Below, piece after piece: positions 28,182 through 37,673 of a stretch of DNA of 45,467 nt. A program made the translations under genes and the position numbers. Origin of the DNA: Mageeibacillus sp. UBA5438 (GTDB taxonomy: Bacteria; Bacillota; Clostridia; Saccharofermentanales; DTU023); the NCBI GenBank assembly GCA_002427535.1, contig DIRK01000043.1, positions 1-45,467 on the forward strand, written 5' to 3'. Positions within the stretch are counted from its first letter, which is position 1. Every line of letters starts with the position of its first letter. The notes under the pieces were generated by a model. It saw only the letters and a program-made list of their open reading frames with translations, searched no databases and was not told the origin of the DNA.

Positions 28182-29459
28182 ATGAAAAAAGTCATTTCAC
28201 TAGGGTTGGCCCTATCGCTATGGTTGCTATCAATGACAGGCTGTGGGGGGGGCATTTCAAAACCGGTGCCGGCAGACGCTTTTGTCCTTGCAGAACCGGA
28301 CACTCCGTTAAAGGACGTCGCTCCCTATGATCTTTCCTCTGATTTTCGCGAGGCACTTTGGCGTTTTGCGAGTAAAACGGCAGGTGCCGCGCTCGAAAAT
28401 GACAAGGAGAAAAACGCGCTTTATTCACCGGTAAGTCTTTATTTTTCGCTTGCGATGTTGAGTGAGGGGGCCAAGGGTGAGACGAAAGAAGCGCTTGAAA
28501 ACTTTTTGGAACTTGACGACCCCGAGAACCTTGCCTCTGACATGCAGCGCCTTTACTCGATGATGACGGGCGAGCATGAATATTCAGAAGAACGTCTCGC
28601 CAATGCCGTTTGGTTCGATCAGGGGCTGATCAATACCCAAGGATCGGCGATCGAACAAAGCTGGCTCGATCAACTGTCAGGTCACTATTACGCCTCTGTG
28701 TTTGCTTCTGACTTTACCGATCCCGACACGGCAACAAAGATGAGTCAATGGGTGGAAGATGAGACAAAGGGCAAGATTCGTCCCGAAATCGATCTTGCGG
28801 ATCCCTTGTTGCAACTCGTCCTCATGAATACAATTTATTACTACGCCGGTTGGGCGACGCCTTTTTCGCCGGATAAGACCATGACGGATTTGTTTACCAA
28901 TTCGGAGGGAAAAACGATCAAGCTGCCTTTCATGCAGGGTGTTTTTTCATTCACAAGCGCGATCGTTGATCCTCGTTTCACGGCGGTAAGCCTACCGCTT
29001 TCTAACGGTTCGATTCAACTGATCTTGCCCGAAGAAAATTTAGAGCCTGAGGATTTACTGATCGATCCGGATTTTATCAGCGATTTCAGATCGCGTGAAT
29101 GGGAGAGCTGCGAAGCACACCTTTCGATCCCCAAATTTGAGAGCCAACACAAGATCGACATCCTAAAGGCCATGGAGGATCTAGGCTTAGCTGACATTGT
29201 CCAAGACAACCCCGACTTTTCCGCCATGATCCACGTGCCCGATCAACCGACGTTCGTGGGCGCCATCACGCAGGAGACCTACATTGCCTTCAATGAAAAG
29301 GGCATTGAGGCCGCGGCATACACCGAGATTAGACTCGTGGGCGCCGGACCGGGCGTGCCTGAAGTTTTAGAGCTGGCCTTTGACAGACCCTACATTTATG
29401 TCATCTCGGATCAGGCAGGTGTACCGCTGTTTATCGGAATAGTCAGAAACCCAAAATAA
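28182..29459 (+). CDS. serpin family lipoprotein (copy 1)
   Basis: Signal peptide plus lipobox-like LSMTGC. Serpin blocks YSPVSLYFSLAML and LVLMNTIYYYAGW; hinge EKGIEAAAYTE; FDRPYIYVI..PLFIGIVRNP. Confidence 0.88.
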   Translation: MKKVISLGLALSLWLLSMTGCGGGISKPVPADAFVLAEPDTPLKDVAPYDLSSDFREALWRFASKTAGAALENDKEKNALYSPVSLYFSLAMLSEGAKGETKEALENFLELDDPENLASDMQRLYSMMTGEHEYSEERLANAVWFDQGLINTQGSAIEQSWLDQLSGHYYASVFASDFTDPDTATKMSQWVEDETKGKIRPEIDLADPLLQLVLMNTIYYYAGWATPFSPDKTMTDLFTNSEGKTIKLPFMQGVFSFTSAIVDPRFTAVSLPLSNGSIQLILPEENLEPEDLLIDPDFISDFRSREWESCEAHLSIPKFESQHKIDILKAMEDLGLADIVQDNPDFSAMIHVPDQPTFVGAITQETYIAFNEKGIEAAAYTEIRLVGAGPGVPEVLELAFDRPYIYVISDQAGVPLFIGIVRNPK

Positions 29460-29473
29460 GGGAGGAATGTCAT

Positions 29474-30739
29474 ATGAAAAAAACCTTGACTTTATTGATC
29501 GCCCTGTTACTTGTCTTGAGTACACTTATCGGATGCGCAAATAGCCAATCCAACAACGGGGTGAGTGCTTTGGCTTCACCGGGCGAAGCGGTAAAGGATG
29601 TATCTTACGGCGATGTGTCACAAAGCTTTCGCCGTTCACTCTGGGACTTTGCGGGTAAGACCTCTGCATCCGTTCTGTCGGGAGAACGGGATAAAAATTC
29701 ACTTTACTCGCCCATGAGCCTCTACTATGCCTTGGCCATGCTGGAAGCGGGAGCCGCGGGTCAAACAAAAACGGATCTGCAAGACTTCTTGTCCATGACG
29801 GAAGCATTAGATACGAGTCGGAACTTAAGAACGCTCTATGCCCTCATGACGAAGGAAGAAGAGGGGATCCAAGAGCAGATCGCAAACGCGCTTTGGATAC
29901 GCCAGGACCTTGTCGGTGAGGGTGGTAAAAAAATCAAACAGGATTGGCTGGATCAATTGAAGAATGAATTTTACGCCTCGGCCTTTGCCGTCGATTTCCA
30001 AGATCCCAAAACAGCGCCCAAGATGAGCGAATGGGTGGCGGAACAAACGCGGGGGAAGATCAAGCCCGAGATTGACTTGAATGACCCGCTGCTCCTTTTA
30101 GTGCTCATGAACACCGTGTATTTTAAAGCCAATTGGGATACGGCTTTCGATCCCGCTCACACGGTCAAGGACGTGTTCCATGGAATGGATCTGGATATCT
30201 CGGATGTGCCCTATCTGCAGGGCGCCTTTATGAGCCAGGCACTTTTAGACGATCACTACACCGCCGCAAGACTGTCCTTGACAGAGGGCAGTATCCGCTT
30301 TGTTTTGCCCGAAGAGGGGATGGATCCGGAGGATTTATTGAAGGATCCGCATCTTTTAACCGATCTTTTTGAGAGAGAATGGAAAAATGTATCGCTCAAC
30401 ATCGCGCTGCCGAAGTTTTCTTACAAGACGAAAGTGGACCTCTTAAAAGAGATGGAAGCGATCGGGTTGACAGAGATTGTAACAGTATCGCCCGATTTTT
30501 CGAACATGTTGACGACGGATGCTGAGGTGAGCGCTATCTCACAGGAAACCTTCATCGCCTTGGATGAGAAGGGCGTGGAGGCCGCGGCTTATACCGAAAT
30601 CCAGATACGGGAAACCGGGATGTTAGAACCGCCCGAACAATTGACATTAGAGCTTAACCGGCCCTTCCTCTATGTCATCTCGGATGGGGCGGGGGCGCCG
30701 CTTTTTGTTGGAATTGTGAGAAATCCGCTCGCGGATTAA
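29474..30739 (+). CDS. serpin family lipoprotein (copy 2)
   Basis: Lipobox LIGC. Same serpin blocks (YSPMSLYYALAML; hinge EKGVEAAAYTE; NRPFLYVISD..PLFVGIVRNP). Paralogue of the upstream gene. Confidence 0.88.
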   Translation: MKKTLTLLIALLLVLSTLIGCANSQSNNGVSALASPGEAVKDVSYGDVSQSFRRSLWDFAGKTSASVLSGERDKNSLYSPMSLYYALAMLEAGAAGQTKTDLQDFLSMTEALDTSRNLRTLYALMTKEEEGIQEQIANALWIRQDLVGEGGKKIKQDWLDQLKNEFYASAFAVDFQDPKTAPKMSEWVAEQTRGKIKPEIDLNDPLLLLVLMNTVYFKANWDTAFDPAHTVKDVFHGMDLDISDVPYLQGAFMSQALLDDHYTAARLSLTEGSIRFVLPEEGMDPEDLLKDPHLLTDLFEREWKNVSLNIALPKFSYKTKVDLLKEMEAIGLTEIVTVSPDFSNMLTTDAEVSAISQETFIALDEKGVEAAAYTEIQIRETGMLEPPEQLTLELNRPFLYVISDGAGAPLFVGIVRNPLAD

Positions 30740-30765: not shown

Positions 30766-31326
30766 ATGATGGATGACGCAATTTTAGATCTCTATTTTGA
30801 GCGATCGGAAGAGGCGCTTGCCGCCACGATGGAAAAGTACGGCACGTTGTTAAGGAGCCTTTCATGGAACATTCTGGGAAATGAAGAGGATGTCGAAGAA
30901 TGCATGAGCGATACCTACATGGCGGCGTGGGAGACGATTCCGCCTGAACGCCCCGAGTACTTTAAAGCGTACCTGTGCAAGATCGTTCGCAATTTCTCAC
31001 TCGATCGTGTGAGAAGGAAAACAAGAGAAAAGCGCGGAGGGGGTCAAGTCCCGCTCATCTTGGATGAATTGACAGAAGTCCTGCCCTCCGATGAAGATAC
31101 CAACCGTTTTGTGGAACGAAAGGAATTTTCAGAGGCTATAAGCGATTACCTGCGCTCACAGCCCGCTAGAAGAAGAAAAATCTTCTTACAGCGATACTAT
31201 TACGCCTCTCCGATCCGAGCGATCGCACAGGAGGAAAATACTACAGAAGGGGCCGTAAAGGTGCTGTTGCACCGGATGCGGCGTGAATTGAAACAATTTT
31301 TAATCAATGAGGGATATGGTGAATAA
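30766..31326 (+). CDS. ECF sigma-70 family sigma factor
   Basis: Region 2 (NEEDVEECMSDTYMAAWETIP) and region 4 (RRRKIFLQRYYYASPIRAIAQEENTTEGAVKVLLHRMRREL). Confidence 0.85.
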   Translation: MMDDAILDLYFERSEEALAATMEKYGTLLRSLSWNILGNEEDVEECMSDTYMAAWETIPPERPEYFKAYLCKIVRNFSLDRVRRKTREKRGGGQVPLILDELTEVLPSDEDTNRFVERKEFSEAISDYLRSQPARRRKIFLQRYYYASPIRAIAQEENTTEGAVKVLLHRMRRELKQFLINEGYGE

Positions 31327-32026
31327 CAAAGATACAAAATTGCATCAACTTTTTGACAGCTTGTCATCCATAGACGGCGATCTTTTGGCGGATGTCTCCC
31401 CGGCGAAACCTTCGCCCCCCATTCAACGAAAAAGATGGACGCGCTGGCAGCGCTATGCGACGGTCGCGGCCGCCTTACTGGTCGTTGTCGCAGGCGGGAT
31501 GATTGGGCATTTGTTTTTGAAAGGGTCGATAAACATGACCCGAGAGGGCGCCGCCCCCATGGACTACGAGTCAGCCGCAGAACGAGGGCGTGACACACAA
31601 TTTGGCGGAACAGCGGGTACCCAGACGAACGTCTTGGGTGAGGGGTCCCAAAGCTATGATTCAATCGATCAGCTCGTCTACGATTCGCCTTTTATTTTCC
31701 AAGGAGTATTGCTTTGGACAGAAGAAATAGAAGACGGCGATGAATGGTACTGGGAAGGCTACACGGTGACACAATCCTTTAAAGGAGTCGAAAAGAACGA
31801 ACAACTACGGATCCGGGGACTTCTGGGACAAGAAAAAAAGGAAGGTTCTGAATACCTTGTTTTTGCCAATGACGGACAGATGAGCTTCGAAATTTTGAGT
31901 GATAAAAGCCTCGACTTGTCATCTGTCAGCGATCCAAGCCTACTTTCTTGGCTCGTTCGGGATCGATTCGACGACGATTATGCGCATCTCATCGAGACAT
32001 CCTTGGCTTCAATCGAAGATCCGTAA
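31307..32026 (+). CDS. putative anti-sigma factor (single-pass membrane protein)
   Basis: Overlaps the sigma gene by 20 nt. Short cytoplasmic N-terminus, one TM (YATVAAALLVVVAGGMIGHLFL), and a ~170-aa extracytoplasmic domain. The assignment is by position and topology only; no zinc anti-sigma motif was seen. Confidence 0.5.
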   Translation: MRDMVNNKDTKLHQLFDSLSSIDGDLLADVSPAKPSPPIQRKRWTRWQRYATVAAALLVVVAGGMIGHLFLKGSINMTREGAAPMDYESAAERGRDTQFGGTAGTQTNVLGEGSQSYDSIDQLVYDSPFIFQGVLLWTEEIEDGDEWYWEGYTVTQSFKGVEKNEQLRIRGLLGQEKKEGSEYLVFANDGQMSFEILSDKSLDLSSVSDPSLLSWLVRDRFDDDYAHLIETSLASIEDP

Positions 32027-32052: not shown

Positions 32053-32081
32053 TTGACTTATGAACGCTTGGGATGTACACT
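32053..32081 (+). promoter_or_regulatory. candidate promoter for the riboswitch-led operon
   Basis: TTGACT, 17 nt, TACACT, about 20 nt upstream of the riboswitch P1 region. Confidence 0.45.
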
Positions 32082-32094
32082 TGGAAGTGACAAT

Positions 32095-32270
32095 TGAAAC
32101 ACGACCGTGTGAAGGGAAACAGGTGCAAATCCTGTGCGGTGCCGCCGCTGTAATCTGAGTGTTTCTCCCAAGGCAAAAGCCGGCCACTGAAGTATCGGGA
32201 AGGCGGGAAGAAACAAAAGGGATAAAACCTTTAGCTCATAAGCCAGAAGACCTGCCGGTTGTGTGGACGT
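32095..32270 (+). promoter_or_regulatory. cobalamin (B12) riboswitch aptamer
   Basis: All hallmark blocks appear in order: GGGAAacaGGTGcaAATCCtgtGCgGtgCCGCCGCTGTAA, GCCACTG, GGGAAGGC, and the B12 box AGCCAGAAGACCTGCC (32241-32256). Closing helix is CACGACCG (32100-32107) / CGGTTGTG (32256-32263). Confidence 0.9.
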
Positions 32271-32330
32271 AACGGAACAACGGTTTATTGTGCGTTACGG
32301 ATCAGGGTGCAATGCTTCGGTAAATACGGA

Positions 32331-32366
32331 CCGCGGATCTGCTAAAAGCAGATTCGCGGTTTTTTT
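32331..32366 (+). terminator. intrinsic terminator (riboswitch expression platform)
   Basis: CCGCGGATCTGC-TAAAA-GCAGATTCGCGG (12-bp stem, one G.U pair) followed by T7. It ends 57 nt before the first ATG of the operon. Confidence 0.85.
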
Positions 32367-32423
32367 GTGCCCCTCCGAAAGCCGGACTGTTCCAATTTCT
32401 TGAAATAAGAAAGGGAGCACAAC

Positions 32424-33908
32424 ATGAAACAAAAAAGAACCACGAAAAACACGATCGTCACGATCCTGGCCACCCTGCTGATCTTGACCGCATTCTGGCC
32501 CCAAGTAAAAGTCCTGGCGGCGGGAGCCTCCGATTGGACCTCCTATCGCGGAGCGCCGGATAATAATGCGGTCGTTGTCTTCGAAGAACCCATCGGACTT
32601 GCGGACGAACGGGTTTGGTCGAACATGGTGGGCGATCTCGGAGAATGGGGCACGAACAGCAAGTCAAGCTTCCTTCTCATCGATGAACGCCTCTACTTTG
32701 CAAGCGAAGATCAACTGTACCAACTGGATCGTGCGGGCCATGTGGTCGGCCAGATGACTTTAAGCGGCATGGTCGGATACACCGCGATTCCCGTGTATAA
32801 CGAATGGATCATCATCCCGCTTGACGGGGGTGCCTTAGAAGCCGTCGACCCAAAGACCATGACAAGCCAATGGGTGTCTTTGAGTCCGGCCGCGGAAGGT
32901 GAATACCTGCAAAATGGAAACGCGCTCCAAGTCGCGGACGGTGTCGTCTATTCATTAACACAGTTGCTCGATGAAAACTGGATGTCTGTGAAAGGCACCA
33001 TCCAGGCCGTGGACCTTCTGTCAGGTGAAAGCCTGTGGATAAGAGAAGATATTGCGATTGATTCGGAAGCGGGCTACAACCTAACGGGCGCTTTTGTCTT
33101 AGGCGACAAGCTGTTGGTCGTGGGCGAAAAAGGTGAAATGGTCATGCTTGACAAGAGGACAGGCGAGACCGTCGCGACTGAGTCTATTGGAGCGAAAGTG
33201 AAGTCATTGTTGGTACAAGACGGGGATCTTTTGTACTTCACGACCTTTGACGGGAGGCTTTTGGCCTATGAAGTCAAGGGTCAGGTAATGACGAAAAGAA
33301 AAGACATTGCCTTCTCTGTGAAATCCAACTCAACACCCGTCATCTATGAGGGCAAAGCTTATGTCGGAGGTCTTTTGGAATACGCCGACTGGGAAACGGG
33401 GACGCCTGCTGTGGGTATCTTCGCCGTCATTGATCTTGAAACGGAAGAAGTCGTGGAACGCTATGAAACAGAAGGTGAAGTCCAATCCTCCCCACTCCTT
33501 ATGGCCGGCACGGATGCTATTTATGTCTATTTCACCGTGAACAATGAAGTGGGAGCTCTTTACGCCTACGACAAAGAAGCGATCACCGAGGTTTATGTGC
33601 CTGAAGAAGAATCCCGGCAATATTCCATGTTCAGTCCCGTAGCAGACGAACAAGGAACGGTTTACTATGCCAATGACTCAGGCTATGTCTTCGCGCTCCA
33701 ATCGCTCTTTGCGGAAGAACCGGTCGAAACTGAACCGGCACCGACAGACCCCGCGGTCGAACAAGAGCCCACGGTTACTTCACCCGAACGCAATGAGGCA
33801 ATAGAGAAGGGATCGCCCAAATGGCCTTTAGCCGCTGGGATTGCGGTCGCGGTGATCCTTGTGAATGTGATTATCTGGCGTATCGTGCTCAGGTTAAGGA
33901 AAAAATAA
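32424..33908 (+). CDS. secreted PQQ-like/BamB-like beta-propeller repeat protein with a C-terminal membrane anchor
   Basis: Signal peptide (..VKVLAAGA). W..YRG.PDNN entry motif and repeated hydrophobic-G-D/G blade-like segments. P/E/T-rich stalk (EPVETEPAPTDPAVEQEPTVTSPE), then TM (WPLAAGIAVAVILVNVIIW) and RLRKK tail. Confidence 0.7.
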   Translation: MKQKRTTKNTIVTILATLLILTAFWPQVKVLAAGASDWTSYRGAPDNNAVVVFEEPIGLADERVWSNMVGDLGEWGTNSKSSFLLIDERLYFASEDQLYQLDRAGHVVGQMTLSGMVGYTAIPVYNEWIIIPLDGGALEAVDPKTMTSQWVSLSPAAEGEYLQNGNALQVADGVVYSLTQLLDENWMSVKGTIQAVDLLSGESLWIREDIAIDSEAGYNLTGAFVLGDKLLVVGEKGEMVMLDKRTGETVATESIGAKVKSLLVQDGDLLYFTTFDGRLLAYEVKGQVMTKRKDIAFSVKSNSTPVIYEGKAYVGGLLEYADWETGTPAVGIFAVIDLETEEVVERYETEGEVQSSPLLMAGTDAIYVYFTVNNEVGALYAYDKEAITEVYVPEEESRQYSMFSPVADEQGTVYYANDSGYVFALQSLFAEEPVETEPAPTDPAVEQEPTVTSPERNEAIEKGSPKWPLAAGIAVAVILVNVIIWRIVLRLRKK

Positions 33909-33912
33909 GCAG

Positions 33913-34428
33913 ATGAAAAAGATGGAACCCTTCATGAAAAAGATTGCGGTGATCGCGCTTATTTTGTTGCTTTTCTTCCCGGGCGCCTGCGCCCGGGAAG
34001 AAGCAGTATTAAAACCGGATGACGCGATCACGATCGCTGTCACAGTCGACTGTGTCTCCATCTTAAACAACTCGAATGTGTCGCAAAAGGGCCGCGATTT
34101 GCTGGACCTCTTGATTGAAAAAGATTTGAGCGATCAAAAGGGCTTGATGTTTCGGGGTGATGTCAACATCGCCCCCGCCCAGTCCGCCTTTCACGCACTC
34201 CAAAATACGGGGCTGGAGCTGCGCTACCGAGAAAGCGCCTTTGGCCCCTTCGTGCACTCGATATCCGGGCTGGGGGACAAGGACGCAGGGCCGCTTTCAG
34301 GCTGGGTGTACTTAGTGAATGGCGAAGCGCCTGACGTCAGCTCCGGATTATTTAAATTAGAAGACGGTGACATACTTCATTGGCGTTTCACCGTGGAAGA
34401 GACGGATCTCTTCTTAGATTTGCCATGA
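33913..34428 (+). CDS. DUF4430 domain exported protein (transcobalamin-like fold family)
   Basis: Signal peptide ending FPGAC (possible lipobox). C-terminal block LSGWVYLVNGEAPDVSSGLFKLEDGDILHWRF is typical of DUF4430. The alternative start is 33934. Confidence 0.65.
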   Translation: MKKMEPFMKKIAVIALILLLFFPGACAREEAVLKPDDAITIAVTVDCVSILNNSNVSQKGRDLLDLLIEKDLSDQKGLMFRGDVNIAPAQSAFHALQNTGLELRYRESAFGPFVHSISGLGDKDAGPLSGWVYLVNGEAPDVSSGLFKLEDGDILHWRFTVEETDLFLDLP

Positions 34429-35366
34429 TGATGAAAAAGCATCATCCGGGCGTTGTGCTCTTTTATTACGGCTCAGTCCTCGTTTTGACTATGGCGACGC
34501 GGCATCCGGCGGTGACCCTCTTGTCTTTTTTGTTTTCATTAATCCTGCGATTTCGGATGGAAGAAACAAGAAAAGTCGGACACTCCCTTTTCTATCTGTT
34601 GCCCATGATCTTGATGATCACGGTCTTGAACGGACTGTACAGCGACCGCGGCATGACCCTGCTCTTTTCGTGGGGGCCCGTCAACCTGTCCGTGGAGGGC
34701 ATTTTGTACGGACTCATTTCGGGGATTTCACTGTCCGCAGTCATCTTGTGGTTTCAAAACTACCACGACACGATGGAGAGCGGGCGATTCCTGGCTGTGT
34801 TAGGAAAACGCCTGCCCGTGATCAGCATGATGGTGTCCATGATCTTTCGCGCCATCCCGGATACGCTCGAACAGGGGCGGGAAATCGAGCAAAGCCGTCG
34901 GGCGCTTACAGGGGAGCGTCGTGGGAAATTCCAACTCAAACACGGGGTCACGCTTTTAACCATCCTCATGGGTTGGAGCATGGAAAACGCCATTGAAACA
35001 GCCGACGCCATGAAGGCAAAAGCCTATCTGTCTGATAAGCGGATACCGTACGCCGGGATTCGCCGCTCTTTACGTGACCTCCTGCCGCTCCTGTTGACCT
35101 TGGGTTCAGGTGCCTTGGTCCTTGGGGGCATATTTATAGGCGGCGCGGGCTTTTTGTATTATCCCTTCATGCAAATCCCCCAAAGGGCCGAAAGAGGGTT
35201 CTTCCTTTGGCTTACGGGGAGCACGTTACTCTTCTTGCTTCCTTTATTCTTAGACGGCTTGGATTGGGCCTTGGGGCAGCTTCGACGCCAATTGCTCCGA
35301 GAAGTCTCACCCGATCCTTTCGTATTGCAGCTGTTGCCCCATGATTTAAAGGCAGGTGTTGAATGA
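34425..35366 (+). CDS. ECF transporter transmembrane (T) component, CbiQ/EcfT family
   Basis: The ATG overlaps the upstream stop (ATGA). Polytopic membrane protein with cytoplasmic coupling-helix-like segments (EQSRRALTGERRG; ETADAMKAKAY). It sits directly upstream of the fused ATPase. Confidence 0.7.
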   Translation: MMMKKHHPGVVLFYYGSVLVLTMATRHPAVTLLSFLFSLILRFRMEETRKVGHSLFYLLPMILMITVLNGLYSDRGMTLLFSWGPVNLSVEGILYGLISGISLSAVILWFQNYHDTMESGRFLAVLGKRLPVISMMVSMIFRAIPDTLEQGREIEQSRRALTGERRGKFQLKHGVTLLTILMGWSMENAIETADAMKAKAYLSDKRIPYAGIRRSLRDLLPLLLTLGSGALVLGGIFIGGAGFLYYPFMQIPQRAERGFFLWLTGSTLLFLLPLFLDGLDWALGQLRRQLLREVSPDPFVLQLLPHDLKAGVE

Positions 35367-36964
35367 TGAGTCAGAGTCAGAATAATCTTTTGAAAGTCGA
35401 AGGGCTTTCCTTTACCTATCCCGGTATGGAGGAAGAGGCGCTCATCGACCTCTCCTTTGAAGTAGAAAAGGGCAGTTTCACCCTGTTATGCGGGCCTACA
35501 GGGAGCGGAAAAACAACTCTCTTACGTGCCTTAAAAGAGGAACTTCGCCCGACGGGAGACTACCTCGGTCACATCTTGGCGCCCCCCACCATCGCCTTTG
35601 TACTGCAGGACCCCTCAAACCAGATCGTCATGGATAGGGTCTGGCATGAATTGGCCTTTGGTTTGGAAAATATGGGGTTATCCGGGAAGGTCATTGAACG
35701 GCGGATCGCAGAGACCGCGCATTTTTTTGGCATCGAGCACTGGATCAACCGCCCCATCTCTGAACTCTCCGGGGGGGAGAAACAGATTTTGAACCTTGCC
35801 TCCTCGCTCATTTTGAATCCTTCGCTCATTATTTTGGACGAGCCTACGGCAAGACTTGATCCGGTCGCTGTCACGCGCTTTTTATCGCTTTTGGAGAAAA
35901 TCCATCAGGAGATCGGGACCACCATTCTCTTGTCGGAGCACCGCATGGCGGATGTTCTCCCATTAGTCAACCAGGTGCTGTATTTAGAGGAGGGACATCT
36001 TCTTTATGACGGGGAGCCCCGAGCGTTTGCAAGCTTCCTCTTGGAAGGGCAGAACCCTTTTGCGAAATCGCTGCCGGCTGCGACCAAGATCGTGGATTGG
36101 GCGGAGGCGGCTACGGGACAAAGGCGTTCCCTGCCGGCTCTTTCAGTCCCTGAAGCGCGTAAAAGACTGAATGGGCTCGATCTGGTACTTATGACAGAAC
36201 GACCGGATGAGATTGCCTTCACAGAAGCAGACGCAATTTTGAAGGCGAAAGCCCTGTCCTATCGCTATAAGAGCGATCTCCCGTTCGTTTTGGAAGACCT
36301 CTCCCTTCATCTTTTGGAGCAGTCGATCCACGCGGTGTTGGGCGGGAACGGTAGCGGGAAATCCACCCTGCTTTATCTTATGAGCCGCGTGAAGTCGCCT
36401 AATTCCGGGAAACTTTTCATCGAGGAAGAAAAGCGTGTCGGACTTCTGACACAAAACGCGAAAGCGTTGTTTTCAAAAGAGCACCTCAAAGATGAATTGA
36501 TGGAGCTTCATCAATTAGGGCAGTACGGGGAAGAAGAGGTGGAGAAGATCGCCGGCGCTCTGTCACTGCTGCCGCTCCTTTCCCGCCATCCTTACGATCT
36601 GTCAGGCGGGGAAATGCAAAAGGCGGCGCTCGCTAAACTGTTATTGCTGTCCCCGGACATTCTCCTTTTAGATGAACCTGACAGGGGACTTGATGCCGCG
36701 GGCAAAGAAGAAGTCATCACCCTGCTTCGTAAGCTCCGATCGGAAGGAAAGACCATTCTTTTTGTGTCGCACGATTTGAATTTCACGGCCCGCGTGGCAG
36801 ACCGTGTTTCCTTGCTCTTTAACGGCCAGATCGTGGTCACCGAAAACAGTCGCTCTTTTTTCAGCGAGAACAATTTCTATACTACGGATGTGGCGAGGGT
36901 CACAAGAGGGATCCTCCCCGGTCTTGTCGCTTTGGAGGATCTTGATGCGAAACGATTCGATTAA
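35363..36964 (+). CDS. fused ECF/ABC ATPase (two nucleotide-binding domains, EcfA-EcfA')
   Basis: Two full sets of motifs: Walker A GPTGSGKTT / GGNGSGKST, signature LSGGEKQ / LSGGEMQ, Walker B IILDEPT / LLLDEPD. ATGA overlap with the T component. Confidence 0.9.
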   Translation: MMSQSQNNLLKVEGLSFTYPGMEEEALIDLSFEVEKGSFTLLCGPTGSGKTTLLRALKEELRPTGDYLGHILAPPTIAFVLQDPSNQIVMDRVWHELAFGLENMGLSGKVIERRIAETAHFFGIEHWINRPISELSGGEKQILNLASSLILNPSLIILDEPTARLDPVAVTRFLSLLEKIHQEIGTTILLSEHRMADVLPLVNQVLYLEEGHLLYDGEPRAFASFLLEGQNPFAKSLPAATKIVDWAEAATGQRRSLPALSVPEARKRLNGLDLVLMTERPDEIAFTEADAILKAKALSYRYKSDLPFVLEDLSLHLLEQSIHAVLGGNGSGKSTLLYLMSRVKSPNSGKLFIEEEKRVGLLTQNAKALFSKEHLKDELMELHQLGQYGEEEVEKIAGALSLLPLLSRHPYDLSGGEMQKAALAKLLLLSPDILLLDEPDRGLDAAGKEEVITLLRKLRSEGKTILFVSHDLNFTARVADRVSLLFNGQIVVTENSRSFFSENNFYTTDVARVTRGILPGLVALEDLDAKRFD

Positions 36965-37673
36965 AAAGAAGCTATCGCATCTTGCGGAGTGGGCGACGAT
37001 TTTACTCGTAGTGCTTGTGCTGTTTTTAAGCGCGCTGTTTCGTATTCGACAGGCGGCACTTTTGACCCTTTTGACCGCTTTTCTGGCGAGTGTCCCGTTC
37101 TTTTTGCATTTCGAGCGTCAGCGACCGCGCCCGCGAGACATCATGCCGATCGTAGTCATGGCGACGATTGCCACGGTGGGCAATTTACTTTTTGGCCCTA
37201 TCCCGAGTTTTAAGCCTGTCGGGGCGATCGTGATTGTGACGGGTATTTCCTTTGGCCGCCAAAGCGGTTATGTGACTGGGGCACTTGCGGCCTTTTCGTC
37301 CAACTTGCTTTTTGGACAGGGGGCCTGGACACCTTGGCAGATGTTCGGTTGGGGGCTGGTGGGCTATCTTGCGGGGGTGTTCGAGGAAAAAGGATGGTTT
37401 CGCCGACCCGCTATGGTCTATATTTACGCATTCTTATCCGGATTTCTTTTTGGTTTTCTGCTCGATACCTGGCATATCATCGGTTTTGTGCAGCCTGTGA
37501 CCTGGCAGAACGCATTGTTGGCCTACGGCGCGGGGCTTCCGATGAACGCGACGCTCGCGGTGGCCACCGTTTTATTTTTGATTCCTGTGTTGCGGCCTTG
37601 GACCATGAAACTGGAACGCGTGAAACGGAAATTCGGATTATTGGACGATCGTCAAGAACTGTCACCTATGTGA
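36945..37673 (+). CDS. ECF transporter substrate-specific (S) component, predicted corrinoid-specific
   Basis: ATG at 36945 after GGAGGA, overlapping the ATPase gene by 20 nt. About 6 TM helices; the GQGAWTPWQMFGWGLVG block is typical of ECF S components. Substrate is inferred only from the B12 riboswitch. Confidence 0.65.
   Translation: MRNDSIKKKLSHLAEWATILLVVLVLFLSALFRIRQAALLTLLTAFLASVPFFLHFERQRPRPRDIMPIVVMATIATVGNLLFGPIPSFKPVGAIVIVTGISFGRQSGYVTGALAAFSSNLLFGQGAWTPWQMFGWGLVGYLAGVFEEKGWFRRPAMVYIYAFLSGFLFGFLLDTWHIIGFVQPVTWQNALLAYGAGLPMNATLAVATVLFLIPVLRPWTMKLERVKRKFGLLDDRQELSPM

Follow-up and report, generated by a model that had tools for sequence, protein, structure and literature searches.

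What does a five-gene operon located behind a cobalamin riboswitch import, and what do its two extracytoplasmic proteins contribute? This question is raised by contig DIRK01000043.1 of Mageeibacillus sp. UBA5438, a Gram-positive-type (monoderm) Clostridia bacterium, whose whole 45 kb stretch was analyzed (hereafter the window). A sequence-only reading had proposed two corrinoid-scavenging receptors feeding an ECF importer; its observation of a riboswitch, a terminator and five ORFs is confirmed, and its interpretation as a whole is partly supported. We conclude that the operon probably encodes a B12-repressed, dedicated CbrT-type ECF corrinoid importer together with two extracytoplasmic capture proteins.

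Operon structure and riboswitch leader

The following features were assigned.

32053..32081, + strand: sigma-70-like promoter candidate, TTGACT-17 nt-TACACT (consensus scan)
32089..32273, + strand: cobalamin riboswitch aptamer, class I, AdoCbl-type (RF00174, whole model 1-189)
32328..32369, + strand: intrinsic terminator, riboswitch expression platform (stem-loop and T run)
32424..33908, + strand: propeller gene, 494 aa (PQQ_2, AF2 model, Foldseek)
33913..34428, + strand: DUF4430/transcobalamin-like SLBB lipoprotein, 171 aa (PF14478, AF2 model)
34425..35366, + strand: EcfT, T component, 313 aa (family profile against EcfT)
35363..36964, + strand: fused EcfA-EcfA' double ATPase, 533 aa (two ABC_tran domains)
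36945..37673, + strand: CbrT-like S component, 242 aa (CbrT profile match)

The five genes form a translationally coupled operon preceded by a cobalamin riboswitch and a strong terminator. A gap of 4 nt separates the propeller gene from the DUF4430 gene, while the DUF4430/T and T/double ATPase junctions are ATGA overlaps and the ATPase and S genes overlap by 20 nt; the ORFs and these overlaps are as described before. Ribosome-binding motifs are located 8 nt upstream of the propeller start (GGGAG) and 7 nt upstream of the S component start (GGAGG).

In an Rfam search of the 45 kb window, RF00174 was the sole match; it scored 77.3 bits (gathering score 31.5; E 1.8e-17) and covered the full model, in agreement with the complete riboswitch claimed earlier. 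The terminator, previously given as a 12-bp stem plus T7, is real, but its stem is stronger than described, with 16 pairs, eight of them G-C, closing a 3-nt loop at 32328-32362, followed by TTTTTTT. The leader from 32240 to 32375 has a folding energy of -53.3 kcal/mol (z = -3.7 against shuffles). The promoter candidate, 8 nt upstream of the aptamer, agrees with the consensus at 9/12 positions, which is weak evidence given that six sigma-70-like sites were observed in the scanned region versus 4.2 expected by chance.

As no antiterminator was identified, the OFF logic proposed here follows the pattern of other cobalamin riboswitches of class I. At high intracellular concentrations, adenosylcobalamin would be bound by the riboswitch, the 16-bp terminator would form and transcription would end short of the propeller gene; under B12 scarcity, the whole coupled set of five genes would be expressed.

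The DUF4430 lipoprotein

The second gene encodes a protein with a probable lipobox (...FFPGAC) and a match to PF14478 (42.2 bits, cut-off 23.8; E 1e-10). Its AF2 model (pLDDT 88.6) displays a helix-then-hairpin, the defining trait of the transcobalamin-like SLBB clade (PMC1796856). All 19 PDB matches of the model at E <= 1e-3 are beta-domains of transcobalamin, haptocorrin or intrinsic factor, or the DUF4430 structure 3U7Z; they include 5NP4, in which the human beta-domain on its own carries cyanocobalamin. Thus, the suggested relationship to a cobalamin-binding fold is upheld. It rests on Pfam family membership and fold, as the family's sequence profiles did not reach transcobalamin in the PDB. 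An SGW.Y.VNG...DGD motif is invariant throughout the family. Most likely, the lipoprotein binds corrinoid directly.

The propeller protein and its relatives

The propeller protein comprises an N-terminal signal sequence, an 8-bladed PQQ_2/BamB-like ectodomain, an acidic Pro/Glu linker, a C-terminal membrane anchor and a basic tail. Its PQQ_2 match lies above the Pfam cut-off (E 3.3e-20), and the AF2 model (pLDDT 75.6) contains approximately 31 strands, with helices at both termini. Best Foldseek matches are BamB, YxaL and PQQ dehydrogenases. The nearest folds are a scaffold (BamB) and enzymes (PQQ dehydrogenases) rather than ligand carriers, which counts against our main reading. BtuG, to which the protein had been compared, was absent from its sequence matches and from the top 50 fold matches; given the 8-bladed BamB/YxaL/PQQ-type fold, the comparison is an analogy only. 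Corrinoid binding by the propeller is an unproven candidate property.

Gene order and riboswitch linkage are conserved among relatives, as the synteny check proposed earlier bears out. The order propeller, DUF4430, T, double ATPase, S was found in 34 loci, down to approximately 27% propeller identity; at L087, the DUF4430 gene stands last instead, behind the S gene. The five-gene set is present in many Gram-positive-type contigs. Domain fusions also speak for a joint role: many relatives have one to four DUF4430 domains fused to the propeller, and 22/54 of the closest propeller representatives at 50% identity contain DUF4430 domains in the same chain, while others bear the Gram-positive surface modules LPXTG, CWB2, dockerin and Big_2. 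In 55 of the 69 assessable loci (25/28 clusters at 70% identity), a cobalamin riboswitch immediately precedes the propeller gene; none was found in the other 14. It is retained before a propeller that stands alone (L004) and before a lone DUF4430-propeller fusion (L018). Beyond the window, RF00174-type elements precede the propeller in 20 loci, including orthologous operons. RF01689 reaches its gathering score in seven loci, and the same class-II core was detected in 34 by a custom model, which was built from six sequences and most of whose calls are below Rfam's threshold; the class-II element at L054, for example, scores 31.3 bits in Rfam (E 1.7e-5). This tight linkage of the propeller family to B12 riboswitches is the fresh and testable point of our analysis.

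It is possible, though somewhat unlikely, that the propeller binds no ligand and serves as a tether to the cell wall or a polysaccharide, as a scaffold, or as an assembly platform positioning DUF4430 proteins at the surface, while importer and DUF4430 protein would still handle corrinoid. BamB and YxaL, its nearest folds, are protein-interaction scaffolds, and Burroughs et al. proposed that extra domains on SLBB proteins, explicitly including the beta-propeller, are surface tethers (PMC1796856). In fusions, the propeller accompanies Ig-like, dockerin, CWB2 and LPXTG modules. Further, L059 holds both a propeller-DUF4430 fusion and a complete alpha-toroid plus DUF4430 pair; hence, to regard the propeller as just the absent half of a transcobalamin would be too simple. 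On the other hand, the window propeller is anchored in the membrane by itself and requires no additional tether, and its approximately 45 invariant or nearly invariant positions (orthologues down to 28% identity) exceed the needs of a generic spacer. Moreover, a riboswitch-controlled propeller persists alone at L004, with no DUF4430 or ECF gene nearby.

The ECF importer and its substrate

Pfam searches returned the anticipated PQQ_2, DUF4430 and ABC_tran domains, but CbiQ fell just under its cut-off of 25 for the T component (21.9 bits, E 1.5e-4), and the S component matched weakly (ECF-ribofla_trS 3e-3, ECF_trnsprt 1e-2). Both weak calls were rescued by family profiles, since these match EcfT and CbrT. 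For the T component, the profile match is to L. delbrueckii EcfT (5D3M_D) at E 9.6e-16, a subunit that is also part of the ECF-CbrT entry 6FNP; CbiQ itself is matched by 7/10 T orthologues (best 1e-10). As a single sequence, the S component matches, at E 6.6e-5, chain 6FNP_A of the ECF-CbrT structure, which is 182 aa long and labelled 'Membrane protein'. With the family profile, the value improves to 5.9e-12 and the next S component follows at 0.84, which leaves CbrT, a proven component of Cbl/Cbi transport (PMC5997447), as the only solved S component with a significant match. S-component Pfam models are matched by all nine S orthologues. The double ATPase matches ECF_ATPase_2 (5e-83), ECF_ATPase_1 (6e-79) and the cbiO subfamily (5e-67), and its best PDB match is CbiO (E 3.5e-34). 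Accordingly, the EcfT-like and S identities stand, as does the proposal of a dedicated (group I) ECF importer, now with a CbrT relative as S component.

Haem or another tetrapyrrole is a very improbable substrate. The case for it comes from Lactobacillus sakei lsa1836-1840, a related ECF-like system reported to aid haem uptake, where haem was modelled in a groove between two transcobalamin-like proteins (bioRxiv 10.1101/864751); in addition, reviewers of the SLBB paper cautioned that ligands may range beyond B12 (PMC1796856). However, the window operon and most of its relatives are located behind cobalamin riboswitches of two classes, and the S component is related to CbrT. B12-related neighbors occur elsewhere, namely a BtuR/CobO adenosyltransferase coupled with a propeller protein (L049) and B12-dependent aminomutase genes adjoining a DUF4430-ECF operon (L088), whereas neither a gene nor a regulator related to haem is linked to the module here. 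A CbiMNQO-like ECF transporter for cobalt is scarcely conceivable: T and A components match the CbiQ and cbiO families and cobalt ECF transporters are also controlled by B12 riboswitches, e.g., in C. difficile (PMC11477304), but these models recognise ECF T and A subunits in general, CbiM and CbiN are absent, the match of the S component is to CbrT and not to any S component for metals, and a transcobalamin-like accessory protein would be senseless for a metal ion.

For the corrinoid importer, we propose that EcfT, the fused A-A' ATPase and the CbrT-family S component form the dedicated (group I) transporter, in which the S component would move corrinoid across the membrane. The C-terminally anchored 8-bladed propeller may cooperate with the DUF4430 lipoprotein as a capture layer outside the membrane, either as a second binding surface or as a platform which would hold the DUF4430 protein and pass ligand to the S component.

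Comparison with known systems

The concept is not new and offers less novelty than the earlier reading implied. Predictions already existed both for CbrUVT (Rodionov) and for transcobalamin-like SLBB proteins that occur with CbiO/CbiQ, among them a propeller fusion (Burroughs 2007). What is fresh is the link between the propeller family and B12 riboswitches.

ECF-CbrT of Lactobacillus delbrueckii (PDB 6FNP) is a proven ECF-type vitamin B12/cobinamide importer (PMC5997447). It shares homologous S (E 5.9e-12) and EcfT (E 9.6e-16) subunits, ECF-type ATPases and the expected substrates Cbl and Cbi with the window system, at an identity of approximately 25–30% over the aligned core. The window S component has an additional N-terminal region of approximately 60 aa, and its operon is riboswitch-controlled, of the dedicated group I type with fused A-A', and includes two extracytoplasmic accessory proteins, whereas L. 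delbrueckii uses a shared group II module and, as characterised, has no such proteins. CbrUVT, the established predicted dedicated ECF transporter for cobalamin or precursors (Rodionov and co-workers; PMC6593275, PMC8123684), has the same architecture, with duplicated ATPase, T and CbrT-type S in one B12-linked operon; its published definition, as far as the literature examined goes, is without an accessory propeller.

Extracellular SLBB (DUF4430) proteins of Gram-positives were predicted to scavenge B12 (Burroughs, Balaji, Iyer, Aravind 2007, PMC1796856), and one Clostridium SLBB protein is fused to a beta-propeller and encoded with CbiO/CbiQ (PMC1796856). Domain, CbiO-like ATPase and CbiQ-like membrane partners and predicted role are the same; a second paralogous SLBB protein is frequent in those operons. 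In contrast, the 2007 prediction was made without riboswitch evidence and viewed the propeller as a probable tether, while the window propeller is a separate membrane-anchored product of a riboswitch-linked family.

An ECF operon of L. sakei with split transcobalamin-like proteins was studied experimentally, for haem (bioRxiv 10.1101/864751). The five genes of Lsa1836-1840 likewise encode S, fused A-A', T and two exported accessories, one of them transcobalamin beta-like (DUF4430-type). The second, however, is an alpha/alpha-toroid (transcobalamin alpha-like) and not a propeller, the claimed substrate is haem, and the word 'riboswitch' appears nowhere in the paper (bioRxiv 10.1101/864751).

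BtuG, BtuH, BtuJ and BtuK of Bacteroides are surface lipoproteins (PMC6143338, PMC10404256, PMC13616437), which resemble the window system in logic, as capture proteins of a B12 locus feed a membrane transporter. Some of them are beta-propellers or, as in BtuGH, propellers joined to a second B12-binding domain, but no homology to the window propeller is detectable. The 7-bladed BtuG and BtuK are held at the outer membrane by a lipid anchor and dock on BtuB, which is TonB-dependent; the window propeller is 8-bladed, BamB/PQQ-like, located at the cytoplasmic membrane and paired with an ECF transporter.

Compared with mammalian transcobalamin, intrinsic factor and haptocorrin, sequence similarity of the window DUF4430 protein is too low for HMM searches of the PDB to detect, the protein is lipid-anchored whereas the carriers are soluble, and the window operon is without an alpha-toroid. 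Nevertheless, the window protein shares the fold of the carriers' beta-domain, and other loci pair an alpha-toroid gene with a DUF4430 gene, equivalent to a split two-domain carrier.

A cobalamin riboswitch and a terminator precede five closely spaced genes

The module starts with a cobalamin riboswitch (RF00174), which matches the full model (positions 1-189) with 77.3 bits at a gathering score of 31.5 (E-value 1.8e-17) and is the sole Rfam match in the whole 45 kb window. The complete riboswitch proposed from the sequence alone thereby passed the Rfam check. A terminator is located 55 nt 3′ of the aptamer and 55 nt 5′ of the first start codon; its run of seven T had been described correctly, but its stem is longer than the 12 bp assumed and comprises 16 pairs. 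The terminator is a predicted expression platform able to turn off the downstream genes. The leader folds with −53.3 kcal/mol (z = −3.7 versus shuffled versions). The five genes are on the same strand. A gap of 4 nt lies between the first two, the next two junctions are ATGA overlaps and the last two genes overlap by 20 nt, in agreement with the overlaps claimed before; Shine-Dalgarno sequences were found 5′ of the first and the last start codon of the module.

Features of the module in the window
32053-32081, +, sigma-70-like promoter candidate (weak match)
32089-32273, +, cobalamin riboswitch RF00174
32328-32362, +, terminator (16-pair hairpin, then seven T)
32424-33908, +, ORF 1, propeller
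33913-34428, +, ORF 2, DUF4430 protein
34425-35366, +, ORF 3, T component
35363-36964, +, ORF 4, fused double ATPase
36945-37673, +, ORF 5, S component

The region around the module is ordinary chromosomal, with feoB, gltX, glnS, hrcA through dnaK and dnaJ, tandem serpins and an ECF sigma factor on one side, and gcvT-H-PA-PB, the gap gene and ATP synthase genes on the other. No cob/cbi genes are present within the 45 kb window. The serpin genes (28182-29459 and 29474-30739; Pfam Serpin, 3e-67 and 2e-67) include a second copy with a lipoprotein-like signal sequence, and a serpin fragment is also found 5′ of the orthologous module in locus L004. The ECF-type sigma factor gene (30766-31326) overlaps a gene for a 239-aa protein (31307-32026) with one hydrophobic segment and no Pfam match, which sits where an anti-sigma factor would; this pair is directly 5′ of the riboswitch promoter candidate. 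Another sigma-70-family gene is located at 808-1563.

The last three genes encode a CbrT-type ECF transporter

In protein 4, two ECF ATPases are fused into one chain (ECF_ATPase models, 5e-83 and 6e-79). The T component as a single sequence showed a weak CbiQ match in Pfam and no match in PDB, and a profile of its ten orthologues matched EcfT of L. delbrueckii in PDB (E-value 9.6e-16). The S component alone matched 6FNP_A, the 182-aa chain of the ECF-CbrT structure (E-value 6.6e-5). With the family profile the E-value was 5.9e-12, the next S component, 4HZU_S, being at 0.84, and the protein is thus homologous to the CbrT family to the exclusion of other S components; ECF S-component models were matched by all of its orthologues (9/9). 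T component, two ATPase domains and S component are encoded in one operon by overlapping genes (34425-37673), which is the group I arrangement, and the EcfT, ECF_ATPase and CbrT matches uphold the dedicated importer that had been suggested. That ECF-CbrT imports cobalamin and cobinamide has been proven by experiment (PMC5997447).

The DUF4430 protein shares the fold of transcobalamin beta-domains

Protein 2 (171 aa, lipoprotein-type signal) matches DUF4430 (PF14478) with 42.2 bits, above the gathering cut-off of 23.8. Its AF2 model (pLDDT 88.6) shows a beta-grasp fold in which the helix (92-97) is followed by an extra beta-hairpin (103-108/111-117), as in the transcobalamin beta-domain. Foldseek ranks 1-19 were all B12-carrier beta-domains or 3U7Z, an uncharacterised DUF4430 structure (E-values 1.7e-6 to 7.6e-4). 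The carriers were transcobalamin, haptocorrin and intrinsic factor, with no others at E ≤ 1e-3, and included the isolated human beta-domain with bound cyanocobalamin (5NP4). The DUF4430 sequence profiles A5 and A6 did not reach transcobalamin in PDB (sole match 3U7Z, E-value 0.17), so that the link is based on Pfam and the fold, which agree with the relationship to a cobalamin-binding fold stated in the sequence-only reading. In the literature searched, we found no report of measured B12 binding for any bacterial DUF4430 protein. Identity with Bacteroides BtuH was rejected, as the BtuH domain is treated as its own family, mainly of Bacteroidota (PMC13616437); the BtuH paper was not among the full-text literature matches for DUF4430.

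The DUF4430 proteins of the window clade (window 33913-34428) carry a helical insert of ~20 aa (NSNVSQKGRDLLDLLIEKDL...; residues about 50-72) between the first strand and the core. In alignment A5, distant family members have no such insert.

The propeller is predicted to be a membrane-anchored ectodomain

Among the family models tested, protein 1 (494 aa) passes only the generic PQQ_2 repeat (Pfam, 3e-20). In its AlphaFold model (pLDDT 75.6), an N-terminal hydrophobic helix and ~31 strands are followed by an acidic linker, which is disordered, and the C-terminal transmembrane helix carries a basic tail, so that the modelled protein is an ectodomain anchored to the cytoplasmic membrane. Its Foldseek neighbours are eight-bladed propellers, namely BamB (TM 0.74), YxaL, the designed ‘Cake’ proteins (Cake8, TM 0.81) and PQQ dehydrogenases. 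Approximately 45 positions are invariant or near-invariant.

Three assignments to known propeller families were rejected. For BamB, TIGR03300 reached 47.8 bits at a cut-off of 285.2 and PRK11138 32 at 423; for PQQ-dependent dehydrogenases, TIGR03075 reached 16 bits at a cut-off of 480. BtuG, to which the propeller had been likened, was absent from the 13 phmmer matches at E ≤ 1 and the top 50 Foldseek matches; the alignment is with eight-bladed folds and the window contains no BtuB gene. Membership in the BtuG family is thus refuted, and the likeness is a functional analogy at most.

Gene order is conserved and the accessory proteins are frequently fused

Word-indexed homologue searches with single queries yielded only 9 proteins for the propeller and 4 for the DUF4430 protein, and exhaustive representative and profile searches were needed. 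The exhaustive search detected 1469 representative propeller relatives, 159 of them at E ≤ 1e-30 and many giant and multidomain. Six loci were recovered from the genome scan and eighty from the metagenome scan. A 90%-identical locus belongs to a Clostridia MAG obtained from an anaerobic membrane bioreactor. Mageeibacillus, Clostridiales and Clostridiaceae are the labels of loci at greater distance, and some relatives derive from human-gut metagenomes. Conservation of the gene order had been proposed as a check, and the order propeller-DUF4430-T-double ATPase-S is indeed conserved, being found in 34 loci down to about 27% propeller identity (tblastn and HMM maps), and 6 further loci are truncated after T.

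In 22/54 of the closest propeller representatives, the same chain also contains DUF4430 domains, one to four in number. Modules that typify Gram-positive surfaces (Ig-like, Listeria-Bacteroides repeat, dockerin, CWB2 or LPXTG) are present in others. In the loci examined, a separate second DUF4430 gene almost always lies 3′ of [DUF4430]n-propeller genes. Where propeller or DUF4430 genes stand alone (L018, L023, L033, L024), no BtuFCD-type transporter was found 3′ of them; the genes there are unrelated or without known identity.

Other loci deviate in gene order, among them L087, L088 and L089, which surround unrelated DUF4430 proteins. L087 has the rearranged order propeller-T-double ATPase-S-DUF4430, and its 322-aa protein was ruled out as a toroid. 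In L088 and L089, a gene for an alpha/alpha-toroid (prenyltransferase-like) is followed by DUF4430, T and an ATPase-S fusion; this toroid-DUF4430 arrangement is a split transcobalamin beside an ECF importer, and L088 adjoins genes for B12-dependent aminomutases. A 1441-aa propeller-DUF4430 fusion together with a toroid and DUF4430 pair is encoded in a single riboswitch-led operon in L059. Because both types coexist there, we rejected the rule that the propeller generally stands in for a missing transcobalamin alpha-toroid.

Loci with split transcobalamin followed by T and an ATPase-S fusion
L088, 5414-10659
L089, 5946-11047
L059, 7599-13668

The propeller family is linked to two classes of cobalamin riboswitches

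RF00174 is present in each of the four genome loci whose upstream DNA was long enough. Covariance models (R1 and R2) replaced nhmmer with the class I alignment, to which class II elements and L088 had been invisible. The class I model, built from ten RF00174-type elements, detected an element in 20 loci in addition to the window, in every case just 5′ and on the same strand; the element of L088 scored 58 bits. Class II elements (RF01689) at or above the Rfam gathering score precede DUF4430-propeller genes directly in seven further loci. With a class II model built from six RF01689 elements, the core GGGAAU..GGGUGAGAAUCCC..GCUGUACCAGCAACCGUAA was found in 34 loci, 40-140 nt 5′ of an open frame, although this model derives from few, related sequences and its scores could be raised by conservation of the leader. 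The core conserved in the model is the one shared by the seed elements called RF01689 by Rfam, and the model also recovers RF00174 aptamers at the same place with low score. Most class-II-like copies fall below the Rfam gathering score for RF01689, e.g., that of L054 with 31.3 bits at a cut-off of 36.5 (E-value 1.7e-5 in a small search). These near-threshold elements suggest that Rfam thresholds may miss a cobalamin riboswitch lineage.

Examples of AdoCbl-II-like cores just 5′ of giant [DUF4430]n-propeller genes
L054, 4359-4469
L044, 4372-4447
L021, 8488-8565

Altogether, a cobalamin riboswitch lies 5′ of the propeller gene in 55 of the 69 loci with assessable upstream sequence and is absent in 14. 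Because of the metagenomic origin of the loci, with many near-duplicates among them, we also counted clusters at 70% propeller identity: at least one member has a riboswitch in 25 of 28 assessable clusters, and every assessable member in 22. The synteny of propeller and DUF4430 genes with B12 riboswitches in relatives, a further point of the sequence-only reading, is thus confirmed.

The linkage is kept without nearby ECF genes in L004, L018 and many human-gut loci. L004 (1351-3127) consists of riboswitch and propeller only, with the same flanks as its relatives (serpin-like ... gcvT), and is without the DUF4430 and three ECF genes that its close relatives L006, L011 and L027 have; L018 holds a lone riboswitch-linked DUF4430-propeller fusion. 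In L049 (6896-13286), a class-II-like riboswitch lies 5′ of the gene for a propeller protein of 1504 aa, after which come ApbE and BtuR/CobO, the ATP:corrinoid adenosyltransferase; no ECF genes were seen in this stretch.

Despite ample upstream DNA, neither Rfam nor our two models detected a cobalamin riboswitch in L037, L047, L055, L077 and L079. These five are [DUF4430]n-propeller, DUF4430 and ECF loci (e.g., L047 6683-15920), and ABC ATPase-containing genes lie 5′ of these modules in L047 and L055. No cobalamin riboswitch was detectable in the propeller-DUF4430-ECF locus L083 either; it contains a raiA RNA motif (RF03072, 16704-16958, 175.9 bits) about 0.9 kb 3′ of the ECF S gene.

Proposed function of the module

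The regulatory RNA, operon structure, homologies, synteny, fusions and riboswitch linkage observed here can be combined with established knowledge. Uptake and biosynthesis genes are turned OFF by class I cobalamin riboswitches (PMC11477304), the substrate-binding S component of an ECF transporter topples across the membrane, powered by the T-A-A′ module (PMC5997447), and the transcobalamin beta-domain makes direct contacts to B12 (PMC1796856) and crystallises in isolation with bound cyanocobalamin (PDB 5NP4; PMC5599065). Together, they lead us to propose that the module would act as a B12-repressed, CbrT-type corrinoid importer, in which the DUF4430 lipoprotein would form a surface capture layer together with the anchored propeller. 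The operon very likely encodes a corrinoid ECF importer regulated by B12, and the DUF4430 protein probably binds corrinoid. Direct binding by the propeller, as opposed to a platform role, is less likely than not.

That the propeller might serve as a scaffold or tether, as Burroughs et al. saw it, fits both its fold neighbours and L059, where a propeller fusion accompanies a full toroid and DUF4430 pair. Haem, the substrate claimed for a related L. sakei operon, is unlikely here because of the cobalamin riboswitches and the B12-related neighbour genes. A cobalt transporter is excluded, as CbiMNQO uses CbiM (and CbiN) for substrate capture, whereas none of the five module proteins has a CbiM or CbiN domain and the S component is CbrT-type.

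Returning to the corrinoid importer, its capture layer could be a bipartite receptor of DUF4430 and a second, independently evolved and monoderm-specific class of corrinoid-binding propellers, a counterpart of BtuG/BtuH by convergence. DUF4430 might be fused or separate, and the receptor might feed ECF-CbrT, or other transporters where ECF genes are not adjacent. We regard this joint reading as speculative and rather improbable.

Comparison with known systems

Extracellular capture of scarce corrinoids by Gram-positives is an open question to which the module speaks; a 2026 review of the Bacteroides relay calls such roles in Firmicutes ‘entirely uncharacterized’ (PMC13616437). The operon and its relatives offer a compact test system with a single riboswitch, a single importer of the CbrT type and two small ectodomains. 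B12 binding by the DUF4430 protein would confirm the 2007 prediction, with animal transcobalamins descended from bacterial B12 scavengers; if the propeller binds B12 as well, it would represent a new B12-binding fold class convergent with BtuG.

The ECF core is of the CbrT/CbrUVT kind (PMC5997447, PMC6593275, PMC8123684), and the accessory DUF4430 protein is a member of the transcobalamin-like SLBB clade (PMC1796856), of which a relative has been studied experimentally only in L. sakei, for haem. A 2007 study had already described operons of such SLBB proteins with CbiO/CbiQ, a second paralogue and, occasionally, a fusion to a beta-propeller, and had predicted a B12-scavenging role (PMC1796856). 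The novelty claimed from the sequence alone therefore holds in part: the module is real and conserved but was largely anticipated by comparative genomics. What is new is that the propeller family is itself a member of the B12 regulon, across two riboswitch classes and many lineages; no paper linking PQQ-type propellers to cobalamin riboswitches was found in the literature searched. BtuG of Bacteroides is seven-bladed, lipid-anchored at the outer membrane and a partner of BtuB (PMC13616437), whereas the window propeller aligns with eight-bladed folds and has a predicted anchor in the cytoplasmic membrane.
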